Assembly: GCA_963762115.1 (NCBI GenBank)
Contig: CAVXJH010000003.1
Location: 256,001-320,000, forward strand
Direction of reading: 5' to 3'
Length of the DNA stretch: 64,000 nucleotides
Origin: Candidatus Babeliales bacterium
GTDB taxonomy: Bacteria > Babelota > Babeliae > Babelales > JANWKD01
Positions 18,572-22,448 of the stretch are shown piece by piece. Made by a program: the position numbers and the translations under genes. The notes beneath the pieces are model-generated. The model saw only the letters and a program-made list of their open reading frames with translations. It was not told the DNA's origin and made no database searches. The number at the start of each line of letters is the position of its first letter. Within the stretch, counting starts at the first letter, position 1.

Positions 18572-19465
18572 CTAAAGAGTGTAACCCTGCTTCAGTTCTT
18601 CTTGGTAAAAAATATACAAACCAATGAAAACAACGAATAAAGAAAGGAAGAAAGTCCAACTGACCATTTCACCCAAAAACAACCAGCCAAAAAGTGCGGC
18701 AAAAAGAGGAGTGGTAAAGCCAGCAAATGAAAGAAAAGTTGCTGTATAACGCGTCAGCAAGTAACCATAAAAGTTATAGAACAATATATTGGCAACCAGA
18801 ATAATAAGAGCTGTTAAACGAACAAATGGCCAAAATTGCATGATAGGAGAAATTGCCCATCCCTCAACAAAATATGAAGTAATTAAAGCTAAAATACCGC
18901 CACCAACCATGCCAACACCATTAACCATAATGGGGGAATATTCACCATCTTTTACTAACTTACGAAGCATAATCCAACCATACACTGCCGAACCAACAGC
19001 AAAAAGCATCACGACTTCAGGCAAAGAAATTAATGAAGATGCTGTATGAACAGATAAATTTGAAACTATTTCAGGTAAAAAACCACAAAAACCAATACCA
19101 AGCCCTAACCATTTTCTAGAGGTCATCTTCTCTGAAAAATAAAAATAAGAAAAAATTGCTGCGAAAAATGGCGATAAATTATAAAGAAATGACGATTTAA
19201 ATGAAGTCAAATATTGCAGAGACCACAAATCTAACATATAAGCAAAATACACATGAAAAAGAATTATTTGAAAGAATAATAACCTATCTTTTTTATGCAC
19301 AAAAAAAGCACGCCTATCTTTCAAATAGGTATAACCAAGAAGCAATAACCCGGCCACGAACATACGAATGCCCACAAAAAACAATGGTTTTACGTACTCT
19401 AACAATGCCTTACAAATAGTAAAAGTACTCGCACACAAAGCATATAACACAATAATCGAAAACAT
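18572..19465 (-). CDS. EamA/DMT transporter resembling the chlamydial SAM/SAH carrier
   Basis: About 10 TM; LSPFFAAIFSY..SEKMT, LPE, YGW..LRKL, TFLSF..PLFAALFGWLFLGE, YQEELKQGY. DMT is secure; substrate is from recalled similarity. Confidence 0.85.
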   Translation of the reverse strand: MFSIIVLYALCASTFTICKALLEYVKPLFFVGIRMFVAGLLLLGYTYLKDRRAFFVHKKDRLLFFQIILFHVYFAYMLDLWSLQYLTSFKSSFLYNLSPFFAAIFSYFYFSEKMTSRKWLGLGIGFCGFLPEIVSNLSVHTASSLISLPEVVMLFAVGSAVYGWIMLRKLVKDGEYSPIMVNGVGMVGGGILALITSYFVEGWAISPIMQFWPFVRLTALIILVANILFYNFYGYLLTRYTATFLSFAGFTTPLFAALFGWLFLGEMVSWTFFLSLFVVFIGLYIFYQEELKQGYTL

Positions 19466-19503
19466 AGTTACCCTTCTATAAAACTACTTACTTTCTCACT
19501 ATT

Positions 19504-19533
19504 AAAAAAACAGGCAACGCCAAGCATTGCCTG
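19504..19533 (-). terminator. Terminator after the cupin gene
   Basis: CAGGCAA..TTGCCTG stem followed by T7 on the minus strand. Confidence 0.6.
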
Positions 19534-19544
19534 CAACTAATTTC

Positions 19545-19886
19545 CTAATCACCCTTAGATTTTAAACGGGCAGGCTCAAACATAAGAACTAACGATCTTT
19601 CTTCTGCCTTAGGTTTGTGTTGAAGCCCCTTAGGTATAACAGCTCCTTGATTTTCTTTCAAATCAATTGATCCTTTTTCAGTATCAATGGTAATTTTACC
19701 CTTGGCAACTAGAAAAAACTCATCATCTTCATCATGACTATGCCAATGAAAATCGCCCTTAAATGCGGCAGCACGAACGACCCAATCATTAATCCGAGCA
19801 ACTTCAATAGGACTCCAATAGTTTTCACCTATTTTTTCATTAATACTATCAAGATCATAAAATTGTAAAAATTTTTTAATATCCAT
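19545..19886 (-). CDS. Cupin domain protein
   Basis: GDFHWHSH..DDEFF and IPKGLQHKP cupin motifs. Confidence 0.9.
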   Translation of the reverse strand: MDIKKFLQFYDLDSINEKIGENYWSPIEVARINDWVVRAAAFKGDFHWHSHDEDDEFFLVAKGKITIDTEKGSIDLKENQGAVIPKGLQHKPKAEERSLVLMFEPARLKSKGD

Positions 19887-19909
19887 AAAATCCTTTCAAA
19901 AATAACAGT

Positions 19910-20680
19910 TTATAACGTAACAAATATTTCTTTTCCAGCGGAAACTTTCAAATAATCTCGCGCAGAACCCTGATTAACCGCAATCTCAAGCGTGTTATTA
20001 CTTCCTTTATAACAAAGCAATTGCCCCTGCTTAACCTTATCAAATGTTATTACAAAGGGTACTTCCAAAGATTTATCATCTATCTTCAAATGTATTAACC
20101 TATCAAACCATGTAGGATCAACTTGTATATTAGTTTTAATGTTGCCAAAACTATCTATGTAAGTAATAATTTTTTGCGTTTCTAAACTATCGCACAACGT
20201 AATATCTTTTTTATCAATCGGCAAAAGAGCATTCGTATTATTTTGTGCCAGTTGAATTGCAATCGGCGTAAAAATATCTCTACCATGAAAGGTATTCGAT
20301 TTTTCCGGGAAACATGCTTCATTAATTTTAAACACTTTTACACCCTCTTGTTTCAAAATATAATGAAACAAGCCATTATTTGGCCCAATAAACGTATATG
20401 ATCCAAGTTTTACTACCAAACCATTCCGTTCGGTGCCAACGCCCGGATCAACAACCGTAATAAAATAACTATTTTCAGGAAAATAGGCATAGACCTTTTC
20501 GAGCACAAATGCCCCACTGACAATACAAAATTTTTCTATGGAATGATCAATATCAATAACCGAACAATGAGGAATTTCACGCAATAAGGTAGCCTTTATG
20601 GAGGCAACCGCAAAATCAAGCCCAAAATCCGTTAATAAACCAAAAGTAATATTTGTATTTTTTGAAGATAACAAATTCAT
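19910..20680 (-). CDS. SAM hydroxide adenosyltransferase (SAM-dependent chlorinase/fluorinase family)
   Basis: LLTDFG, VVDPGVGTER, GPNNG, TFHGRDIF, IDSFGN, LEIAVNQGSA. Confidence 0.93.
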   Translation of the reverse strand: MNLLSSKNTNITFGLLTDFGLDFAVASIKATLLREIPHCSVIDIDHSIEKFCIVSGAFVLEKVYAYFPENSYFITVVDPGVGTERNGLVVKLGSYTFIGPNNGLFHYILKQEGVKVFKINEACFPEKSNTFHGRDIFTPIAIQLAQNNTNALLPIDKKDITLCDSLETQKIITYIDSFGNIKTNIQVDPTWFDRLIHLKIDDKSLEVPFVITFDKVKQGQLLCYKGSNNTLEIAVNQGSARDYLKVSAGKEIFVTL

Positions 20681-20717
20681 AGTCAATCTCTCTCATTAAA
20701 AAATGAAATCAAATTAC

Positions 20718-20748
20718 AACAAAAGCACATCCCAAAAGGGATTCGCTT
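20718..20748 (-). terminator. Candidate attenuator hairpin between the Met-rich leader and SAM hydrolase
   Basis: Minus strand AAGCGAATCCC-TTTT-GGGATGTGCTT followed by T-rich tail. Confidence 0.5.
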
Positions 20749-20784
20749 ATAAAAAAATAATTGTGGAAAAGAAGATATATGGCC

Positions 20785-20883
20785 TTAGGCCATCATATAA
20801 AGAAGAGAAAATGACATAACCATGAATGCCAAGAACAAAATTTTGCTTGTCTGTGAAAAACAGGAAATAATGTTAAGATTCAT
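20785..20883 (-). CDS. Putative Met-rich leader peptide (32 aa)
   Basis: MNLNIISCFSQTSKILFLAFMVMSFSLLYMMA*; GAGGTG RBS; promoter directly upstream. Confidence 0.6.
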   Translation of the reverse strand: MNLNIISCFSQTSKILFLAFMVMSFSLLYMMA

Positions 20884-20922
20884 AGTCACCTCAAAGGGTT
20901 GAATTGTTAAATACTCTATTAA

Positions 20923-20951
20923 ATTCTAGAAAACAAATTCAAATTTGTCAA
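20923..20951 (-). promoter_or_regulatory. Sigma70 promoter upstream of the Met-rich leader
   Basis: TTGACA-17 nt-TAGAAT on the minus strand. Confidence 0.65.
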
Positions 20952-21109
20952 TTTTTCAAAAGTCAAAGACATACAGAACAATTTTTTGTATCCTCAGGAT
21001 ATTATTGACGCTTAGAATATTTTATAATTAATAAACATATACTTTTTCTGTATTAATGATAAAACAAGTATCTATATACCTTTATATCGTTATAGAAAGA
21101 AAACATGCT

Positions 21110-22448
21110 ATGAATACGTTTAATAAACTATTAGCAATAGCTATACTAACCTGTACTCTTGGTACTATAACCTTAGGATTTAGTATTTTTAATACAAAAA
21201 ATACTAATACGATGCCAGTCAAAAACATTATTGTTATTGGAACTGGGGCAGCTGGCATAGGTTTTATACATGAAATACTAGAACAAAAAACTCTTGCTCA
21301 CATTACCTGGATAAGCTCTGATAATCATAATCCCTATGATCGAACTAAATTAGATTCAGTAGTTTCGCAAGAAATCTCAGAAAATGCCCCTACTCTCTTT
21401 GATAAAAAGAGTAACAACATTGATCTTCTCTTGGGTAAAAAAAGTAATATCTCTTGATGCTCAGAAAAAAATAGTAGCCTTAGATGATAAAAGCACTTAT
21501 TGCTATGATTATCTTTTTTTAGCAACAGGCTCAACGCCTAATGATCTTTTCCCGGAATCTCCCAAAGCTCAATCAATTAAAGGGATTTTTAATTTTCACA
21601 CCCTAGAAGATGCAAAAAATATTAATGCTTACATCAAGCAAAATACTATAACCGATGCGACAGTAATAGGTTGTGGCATTAATGGTCTTGAAGCAGCTGA
21701 TGCACTTTTTAGACGCGGTATAAAAGTTACTATTATTGATAGAAATGAACATATTTTACAAAATACTATTAATATCGAAGCTTCTCTAGCAATTGAAAAA
21801 AATATAAAAAATATATCTTCTATCACCTGGTATCCAAAATCTTCACTTAAAAATATCATACAAAAAAACGGCAATCTGGAAGGCATAGAACTTACTGATG
21901 GCAAAATAATTAAAACAGCGCTCATAATTAGTACTATTGGTGTAAAACCAAATATATATCTTGCAGAACAAAATGGCTTAACAATAAAAAATAATGCTTT
22001 AATAGTAGATAACACTATGAAAACAAGCGATCCATCAATTTATGCCGGCGGTGATATTATTTTGATATACGATAAAGGCACAAATACCCTCATTAAAAGC
22101 TGTAAGTGGGGAGATGCAGTAAAACAGGGTCATATCGCAGCAAGCAATATACTTGGTATAGAAAAAAAGTATCAAGGTTCCCTAATAGGCTATCGAACAT
22201 CATTCTTTGGTAATACTCTTGTTATGAGTGGGCTATTAAAAAATTACCCTACACAGTACAAAACAATTGAACAATCAGGTATAGATGATATGGGTAAACT
22301 TTTTTATCACAAAATAATCTTAGATAACAATATCATCAAAGGTTTTATTCTCTGTAATAACACGCAATCAGCAAGACGATTACGCAGAGCACTCGAAGAT
22401 CAAACACCATTTAATCATGAACGATTTTTAAGAAGATATAGCAAATAA
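21110..22448 (+). pseudogene. NAD(P)/FAD-dependent oxidoreductase (NADH oxidase/NirB-N type) with a frameshift
   Basis: IGTGAAG in the first ORF; LATGS, IGCGINGLE, TSDPSIYAGGD in the second; frames join at the A7 run 21437-21443. Confidence 0.75.

Follow-up and report, generated by a model that had tools for sequence, protein, structure and literature searches.

The window, by which we mean the whole 64,000-nucleotide stretch of Babeliales DNA analysed here, carries a short leader followed by a gene for a SAM_HAT (DUF62) protein of 256 aa (19910..20680); all features given with coordinates lie on the minus strand. Both domains of the protein, SAM_HAT_N and SAM_HAT_C, exceed the Pfam cut-offs (PF01887, 153.8 bits; PF20257, 68.8 bits), and its best solved relative is PH0463 (E 8e-36). 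The nearest NCBIfam models, named '(R)-S-adenosyl-L-methionine hydrolase', were matched at 146 bits against a cut-off of 470 (NF053629) and at 135 bits against 350 (NF058624). Judged by its sequence, the protein is a clear member of the SAM_HAT family, placed below equivalog level. Residues D78, R85 and H132, which we take to be the Asp/Arg/His active-site triad of the family, are invariant in a four-sequence alignment and lie within DPGVGTER and TFHGRD blocks common to PH0463. SAM_HAT enzymes are described as converting SAM and water to adenosine and L-methionine, and the characterised archaeal members as preferring the inactive (R)-sulfonium epimer (bioRxiv 10.1101/2025.08.29.672840, available part).

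Downstream of SAM_HAT lie a small cupin gene (19545..19886; 113 aa, Pfam Cupin_2) and a gene for a two-domain EamA/DMT transporter (18572..19465; Pfam EamA in two stretches), a candidate SAM (SAM/SAH) carrier. A homologue of the EamA protein with 60% identity carries the source name SAM/SAH transporter, and a Waddliaceae DMT protein is 52% identical. Given that a strong intrinsic-terminator-like hairpin (11 bp and T7; 19510..19534) stands between the cupin and EamA genes, it is uncertain whether EamA is co-transcribed with the leader in the window genome. On the other side of the leader, 5' and divergent, is a frameshifted pyridine-nucleotide-disulphide oxidoreductase gene.

An earlier note on this DNA had described a promoter, a ribosome-binding site, a 32-aa upstream ORF (uORF) with four terminal Met and a hairpin with the stop codon in its loop, and direct reading of the minus strand recovers every one of these elements. 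The sigma-70-type promoter, TTGACA-17-TAGAAT (20923..20951), is near-consensus with 11 of 12 matches, and the Shine-Dalgarno (SD) sequence of the leader ORF, GAGGTG (20887..20892), can be read directly. The leader ORF, MNLNIISCFSQTSKILFLAFMVMSFSLLYMMA, has 32 codons plus TAA (20785..20883; ATG at 20883, TAA at 20787..20785), and its 3' end reads ...FMVMSFSLLYMMA-TAA. The ORF list also contains a version with a GTG start and 34 codons. Four Met codons fall within the last 12 codons, at -12, -10, -3 and -2 from the stop (20823-20821, 20817-20815, 20796-20794 and 20793-20791). The last of them, Met(-2), forms together with Ala(-1) the 5' arm of a perfect hairpin, ATGGCC/TAA/GGCCAT (hairpin 1; 20779..20793), which has the stop codon as its loop and was labelled terminator-like in our scan.

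Hairpin 1 is followed by a U-rich, G-poor tract of T-run, CC and T-run (20748..20778), predicted to be unstructured, and then by an intrinsic-terminator-like hairpin 2, AGCGAATCCC/TTTT/GGGATGTGCT and then TTTGTTGTA (20715..20747), which is lineage-specific. The core of hairpin 2 spans 20742..20729, with an extension to 20747..20724 (dG -11.1). A GAGAGAG-type SD precedes the SAM_HAT start codon (ATG 20680).

Some of these elements are not unusual when taken singly. The promoter scan gave 12 sites compared with 10.5 expected from shuffles, which is no excess. Similarly, at least four Met in the last 12 codons were found in 12 of the 13,705 ORFs of 15-60 codons in this genome of 1.53 Mb and 34% G+C, and thus the Met richness of a single uORF is not beyond chance. 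Some of the 11 others in this genome (G000) are out of frame, and the single one checked lies inside an opposite-strand gene. What lifts the leader above chance is its conservation at the orthologous place in 21 loci.

Conservation of the leader

SAM_HAT is rare in the phylum, being present in 4 of 41 close relatives and in 16 of 261 genomes. Looking for Met-tailed uORFs before the orthologues, a check that the earlier note had proposed, gave a positive answer: 14 of the 16 SAM_HAT-carrying genomes of the phylum, as well as seven metagenome contigs, have such a uORF with its hairpin 5' of the SAM_HAT operon. In the 14 genomes, which belong to four families (f1, f3, f12 and f19), the uORF is short, equipped with an SD and ends in ...M-A-stop (M-G-stop in locus L119), and the GC hairpin begins at the Met(-2) codon. 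The SAM_HAT match is split or fragmentary in the two genomes that have no leader (G049 and G214). The metagenome scan, for which a four-protein SAM_HAT alignment served as the query, yielded 21 loci. Among the 13 with at least 47% SAM_HAT identity, seven have the leader, two are cut off 5', and four have a radical-SAM gene directly 5' and no leader; the Met-tailed uORF is absent from all eight more distant loci. This gives a total of 22 uORFs across 21 leader loci. One of these, L121, has two complete leader and hairpin units in tandem with a promoter on the first unit only, as would be expected of self-contained termination modules.

The leader appears to be confined to this setting. Among the best 80 genome-contig SAM_HAT loci it occurs only in L033, which is the G002 locus again, and none of 88 other SAM_HAT loci scanned has a Met-tailed M-A-stop uORF. 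We regard a Met-rich ORF in L082, the end of which is not MA, as a chance occurrence. The Parcubacteria loci closest to the window SAM_HAT (L149-L151 and L155) have an HD-domain gene or other sequence 5' and no Met leader. A strict leader pattern matched 20 times in the 261 genomes (four times when the pattern was read in reverse as a control); ten of the matches are leaders and the other ten all lie inside long ORFs, and thus the pattern search brought up no further members of a regulon in these genomes. Five matches to an exact 18-mer in non-Babeliales genome contigs have no SAM_HAT nearby and were likewise set aside as chance.

EamA adjoins SAM_HAT in 16 of the 20 assessable leader loci. 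No carrier gene stands beside SAM_HAT in L118, L121 and L122, and L115 has a gene of the Na_H_antiporter family in place of EamA; MetT, an NhaC-type protein, was reportedly once predicted to be a methionine transporter. The cupin is also part of the operon in L003, L012 and L018. In L018 the cupin separates the leader from SAM_HAT, and the gene order is leader, cupin-SAM_HAT-EamA-MetRS.

Within the leader itself, Met accounts for 79 of 264 residues (30%) in the last 12 positions of the 22 uORFs and for 4 of 429 (0.9%) upstream of these, start codon excluded, and the background in long ORFs of the window genome is 1.9%. Cys is also more frequent in the last 12 residues (5.7%) than upstream (1.4%). 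Met occupies -2 in 21 of 22 uORFs and -3 in 16, and one to three additional Met lie 5-12 codons before the stop at variable spacing (for instance -12/-10, -11/-8, -7/-5 or -6). The peptides range from 18 to 45 codons, with N-terminal parts that are unrelated between families. By an estimate from base composition, a random 30-codon frame would be open about one time in ten. Thirteen of the 22 leaders carry an exact TTGACA -35 element 30-55 nt 5' of the start of the uORF, and most of the 22 starts are preceded by cores of the GGAG, AGGA or GAGG type, as judged by eye.

The uORF, its SD, the Met-rich tail and the stop-codon hairpin are thus kept over four families and the remainder of the peptide drifts. 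On this comparative evidence the element is a real, conserved cis-regulatory leader peptide, and given the conserved ORF and SD it is probably translated. The core idea of the earlier note, that a leader of Met codons governs a SAM-cleaving enzyme, finds strong support here. The counting of loosely spaced Met codons would be easier to reconcile with a sensor of tRNA charging than with a structured arrest peptide.

The stop-codon hairpin and the spacer

All 22 leaders can form a stem at the Met(-2) codon that has 4 bp or more, including three or more G-C pairs; in 19 of them it reaches 5 bp or more. Around all 3105 ATGGC sites of the genome, which served as a control, 162 (5.2%) have a stem of at least 4 bp and 2.9% one of at least 5 bp. 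L115 has G-C in place of C-G as its innermost pair, L119, whose last sense codon encodes Gly, has its second pair swapped, and L122 carries a U.G pair; loops vary from 3 to 6 nt. Given the compensatory pair swaps, the U.G pair and the variable loops, hairpin 1 is best understood as an RNA structure, and we ruled out the reading of the palindrome as a DNA operator on account of the U.G pair and the loop sizes. In L118 the stop codon has shifted three codons 3' and the hairpin is retained, which suggests that the constrained element is the hairpin and not the stop-in-loop geometry.

Together with its T-rich tail, hairpin 1 was scored as terminator-like in the window and in L122-L124. Given that the stem is 4-6 bp in most leaders and that the first T-run, judged by eye, lies 4-12 nt away in about half of them, hairpin 1 would nevertheless make a poor canonical terminator. 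The 60 nt 3' of hairpin 1 contain on average over the 22 leaders 52% T, 15.5% C and 8.9% G, and only 1% of 891 control upstream windows in the window genome are equally T-rich and G-poor. A succession of T-run, CC(C) and T-run recurs by eye in these spacers, which are 83-276 nt long before the first gene and are predicted by folding to be unstructured. With 15.5% C the spacer is U-rich rather than C-rich, and thus not a textbook rut site. Matches to Rho_RNA_bind in five of five genomes indicate that rho is present.

The earlier note had also pointed to a terminator-like hairpin before the gene. It is there in the window but does not belong to the conserved part of the leader: a comparable second hairpin is found in L001, L002, L117, L120, L122 and, weakly, L121, that is, in only 5-6 of the 22 leaders. 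In the remaining 16-17 no second hairpin with a T-run was found, and in leaders with neither hairpin scored as terminator-like no canonical intrinsic terminator was seen between the leader and the first gene. Constraint folding of five leaders (L001, L002, L117, L120 and L122) gave no sign of an antiterminator, as hairpin 2 stayed intact whether the ribosome was masked at Met(-3), over the stop or at the upstream Met cluster. With no antiterminator alternative predicted, the leader is not a classical trp-type attenuator. No Rfam family matches it at E up to 10 (19000-22000 of the window).

Possible modes of control

We suspect that the leader peptide senses Met-tRNA and controls the uptake of host SAM and its cleavage to methionine, a reading to which we assign a probability of about 60%. 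In this scenario, the 32-codon ORF would encode a leader peptide with a regulatory role, its translation gauging how much charged elongator Met-tRNA is available. A strong promoter would start the transcript, with the leader as its first ORF, and the only conserved coding features of the leader appear to be the Met in the last dozen codons and the terminal Met-Ala. When Met-tRNA is scarce, the ribosome would pause on the Met codons, and a pause at Met(-3) or Met(-2) would cover hairpin 1 and the start of the U-rich, G-poor spacer. Covering the spacer may prevent premature transcription termination, such that RNA polymerase could enter the operon, with its SAM-cleaving enzyme and, in most lineages, the EamA carrier as a candidate SAM importer. 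When Met-tRNA is plentiful, the ribosome would terminate and leave, and most transcripts would end in the spacer. Termination there could be Rho-dependent, as in tnaC and as proposed for actinobacterial Cys leaders, or alternatively could consist of weak intrinsic termination or a pause at the hairpin and U-tract. Relief of premature termination in the spacer is the output step that we favour. We infer the stalling, the termination step, the direction of control (starvation = ON) and the substrates of the enzyme and the carrier.

The direction of control might also be the opposite. Translation under Met-replete conditions up to the stop-codon hairpin could melt the hairpin or terminator, as in coupling of the pyrBI type, and a ribosome stalled upstream during starvation would let the hairpin form and shut the operon. 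Most leaders have their first Met cluster 8-12 codons before the stop, from where, by geometry, a ribosome would probably miss the hairpin; a ribosome stalled at the upstream cluster (-12..-8) would free hairpin 1, and thus the sign of regulation is not derivable from sequence. The terminator-like score of hairpin 1 in the window and in L122-L124 would also fit this opposite sign. However, an enzyme that releases methionine would make poor physiological sense if produced only when methionine is plentiful, and the most conserved Met, at -3 and -2 (16-21 of 22), lie in or next to the hairpin arm, as expected if a stalled ribosome masks the hairpin. We therefore consider the opposite sign unlikely. 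An arrest peptide of the TnaC or SpeFL kind, with free methionine or SAM in the exit tunnel causing a stall at the stop codon, seems to us quite unlikely. Its C-terminal M-A-stop (21 of 22) and the confinement of conserved residues to the last ~12 positions, the part residing in the tunnel, would be in keeping with such a peptide, and a long spacer and a rho gene are likewise reminiscent of tna. Known arrest peptides, however, keep a fixed spacing of residues, whereas here only Met and the terminal Ala are conserved, Met spacing varies and the peptides have anything from 18 to 45 residues. The hairpin arm offers another explanation for the terminal Met-Ala codons, and in L118 it is the stop that moved while the hairpin stayed.

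The product of the uORF might instead be a small hydrophobic protein with a function of its own, such as a partner of EamA in the membrane, with the hairpin a mere stabiliser or the remnant of a terminator. Small membrane peptides that accompany transporters are known, and many of the uORF peptides are hydrophobic and about 30 residues long. Yet there is no conservation between families outside the Met positions, some versions are short (18 aa in L115) or polar (L123 and L124), and the uORF is retained in loci without EamA (L115, L118, L121 and L122); moreover, L121 has two tandem copies and the uORF has no Pfam match. Of the explanations weighed here we give this one the least credence. Slightly less improbable, though still very unlikely, is translational attenuation as in ermC or the mycobacterial polycysteine sORFs, in which a stalled ribosome would open a duplex that hides the SAM_HAT ribosome-binding site. 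The Cys precedent is described as acting in this way (bioRxiv 10.1101/834739, available part), and in the MFE folds of L001, L002, L003, L014 and L015 the pyrimidine-rich 3' part of the uORF pairs with the purine-rich SD of SAM_HAT. Masking a stalled ribosome did not, however, raise SD accessibility in the 11 leaders so treated, and pairing of the SD region equals that of dinucleotide shuffles (mean z -0.08, with 2 of 21 at or below the 10th percentile, some gene starts in the second set of loci being guessed). With no signal in either the masked-ribosome folds or the shuffle control, sequestration of the SD by the uORF is not supported, and the tandem leaders of L121 would also be hard to fit to this type of control.

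Methionine and SAM in the Babeliales

Sensing of Met-tRNA would be in line with the gene content of these bacteria. Searches with the Pfam families S-AdoMet_synt_C, archaeal AdoMet_Synthase, Meth_synt_2, S-methyl_trans, AdoHcyase, PNP_UDP_1 and MetQ lipoprotein gave no match for metK (of either type), metE, metH, AdoHcyase, Pfs or MetQ in the five genomes searched each time, and in control genomes all of these families were matched. MetRS is present in the genomes searched. Given that the genomes are 64-99% complete and that the searches relied on Pfam, these genes are better called not found than absent. The Babeliales in question thus appear to be without SAM synthetase and methionine synthesis, and the module would let an obligately host-dependent cell make methionine from host SAM on demand. 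Read together, this suggests host-dependent cells that take up SAM and are able to turn it into methionine, with the leader coupling that conversion to Met-tRNA supply.

From the perspective of known systems, control by leader peptides is textbook for Trp, His, Leu, Thr, Ile/Val and Phe and, more recently, Cys. The Babeliales leader resembles trpL, hisL, pheL, leuL, thrL and the ilv leader of E. coli in being a short, SD-driven ORF behind a promoter, with codons of the supplied amino acid clustered at its end. As in the trp 1:2 arrangement, where the stop codon is at or next to the loop, the regulatory codons of the Met leader would occupy the 5' arm of a hairpin and its stop codon lies at the loop. 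It differs from trpL-type attenuators in that Met would be sensed and that no mutually exclusive pair of antiterminator and terminator was found, and its operon is not biosynthetic but consists of a cofactor-cleaving enzyme and a carrier. In E. coli tnaC-tnaA, Rho-dependent attenuation is lifted when a ribosome stays on the last part of the leader ORF, and free tryptophan is sensed via the nascent chain at the stop codon. Shared with tnaC are the critical positions at the uORF end, the long untranslated spacer and the presence of rho; unlike in tnaC, the conserved feature is a set of variably spaced Met codons and the spacer is U-rich. The established controls of Met and SAM genes are S-box/SAM riboswitches, Met T-boxes and MetJ. 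These too have methionine or SAM supply as the variable that controls genes of the Met/SAM node, but the sensor here would be a translated ORF rather than an aptamer, a tRNA-binding leader or a repressor.

The closest published parallels are the Cys leaders. Actinobacterial Cys leaders are reported to have Cys codons by the stop and no hairpins, with Rho sites proposed (Seliverstov et al. 2005, PMC1262725, available part). For mycobacterial Cys sORFs, which are leaderless and unmask a downstream RBS, ribosome pausing is reported to have been shown to be the sensor (Canestrari et al., bioRxiv 10.1101/834739, available part). Like these, the Babeliales leader has sulfur amino-acid codons near the uORF stop and, in most loci, no classical terminator hairpin that could be found. 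It differs from the mycobacterial sORFs in the use of Met instead of Cys, and the unmasking of an RBS is without support in Babeliales. The stop-codon hairpin is a feature of the Babeliales leader, and none is described for Cys leaders in the available parts of PMC1262725 and bioRxiv 10.1101/834739.

Proven SAM/SAH carriers, CTL843 of Chlamydia and RP076 of Rickettsia, are described as DMT proteins with two EamA domains and about 10 TMS that import host SAM in metK-less intracellular bacteria (PMC3104491, available part). The EamA protein of the window shares the two-EamA architecture and occurs in genomes where metK was not found, a likeness by architecture. The available part of PMC3104491 mentions no link between CTL843 or RP076 and a SAM-cleaving enzyme or leader peptide.

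The earlier note knew of no established Met leader-peptide attenuator, and a full-text literature search agrees with this: it turned up neither a published Met leader peptide nor any report that Dependentiae scavenge SAM. For Actinobacteria, one comparative study reports explicitly having seen no RNA element ahead of the methionine operons (PMC1262725, available part). Leader-peptide control is of a kind already known, and what is new in the Babeliales leader is the proposed sensing of methionine, the lack of an antiterminator and the stop-codon hairpin. Tentatively, and with rather more doubt than we attach to Met-tRNA sensing as such, we put forward a minimal, antiterminator-less methionine attenuator, in which a ribosome on the last two sense codons blocks Rho-dependent or hairpin termination, joined to EamA import of host SAM and its hydrolysis as a regulated source of methionine in obligately intracellular Babeliales.

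Given that the leader is simple, conserved over four families and unlike the trp architecture, it could serve as a compact test case for antiterminator-free control of termination by a stalled ribosome. The DUF62 enzyme and its EamA neighbour in Dependentiae would gain a physiological role in the scavenging of host SAM for methionine, and a prediction that can be tested follows for the nutrients on which this uncultured, host-dependent phylum relies. If true, this would be a previously unrecognised nutritional pathway, with host SAM as a regulated methionine source in obligately intracellular Babeliales.

Composition, duplication and start context of the leaders

Cysteine is four-fold enriched in the tails of the 22 leader uORFs (the short Met-tailed ORFs upstream of the SAM_HAT operon), at 5.7% versus 1.4%, and often falls within Met-Cys (ATGTGC), as in loci L003, L004, L016, L018, L122 and L123. 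The explanation is either joint sensing of the sulfur amino acids or a structural role for palindromes of the GCATGTGC type.

In locus L121 (943-1274; genome G070), two complete Met-tailed leaders stand in tandem behind one promoter with 92 nt between them, and each has a separate stop-codon hairpin. The shortest leader of the set, 18 codons, belongs to L115 (genome G220).

On the minus strand of the window, the uORF (20877-20887) and the SAM_HAT gene (20674-20684) have in common the 11-base start context tgactATGaat, and the peptide and the protein both begin with Met-Asn. In L002 and L003 the context common to uORF and SAM_HAT is ATGAAT only. The match could be due to chance, or could be a trace of the leader's origin.

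Apparent decay and gene starts of SAM_HAT

SAM_HAT looks to have decayed in some lineages (genomes G256, G049 and G214). The gene in G256 (L117) has an in-frame TAG and the leader is retained; in G049 (L125/L127) and G214 (L126/L128), SAM_HAT matches are split or fragmentary, and both genomes are without a leader. In four genomes (L119-L122), the SAM_HAT frame is already open 30-48 residues before the Pfam domain. Either the protein is extended at its N-terminus or the start has been mis-placed, and the leader-to-SAM_HAT spacer lengths of these loci are therefore uncertain.

Genes beside the operon

The divergent neighbour of the leader in the window (21110-22448, plus strand) is assigned by Pfam to the pyridine nucleotide-disulphide oxidoreductases (Pyr_redox_2). 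It consists of two overlapping ORFs, 21110-21457 and 21384-22448, which combined cover the Pfam model contiguously, and its reading frame breaks close to an A7 run (21437-21443). The split gene is either a frameshifted pseudogene or the product of a homopolymer sequencing error.

A methionyl-tRNA synthetase gene (L018, 3318-3740; metagenome contig) lies immediately 3' of the leader, cupin, SAM_HAT and EamA series, and in L115 (107-1390) an Na_H_antiporter (NhaC-type) family gene takes the place of EamA after the leader-preceded SAM_HAT. In relatives, eukaryote-like domains also adjoin the operon, namely a C1q domain in L003 (3267-3761, minus strand) and ankyrin repeats in L120 (3255-3743) and L126 (637-1188). 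Such neighbours are in keeping with a host-associated lifestyle.
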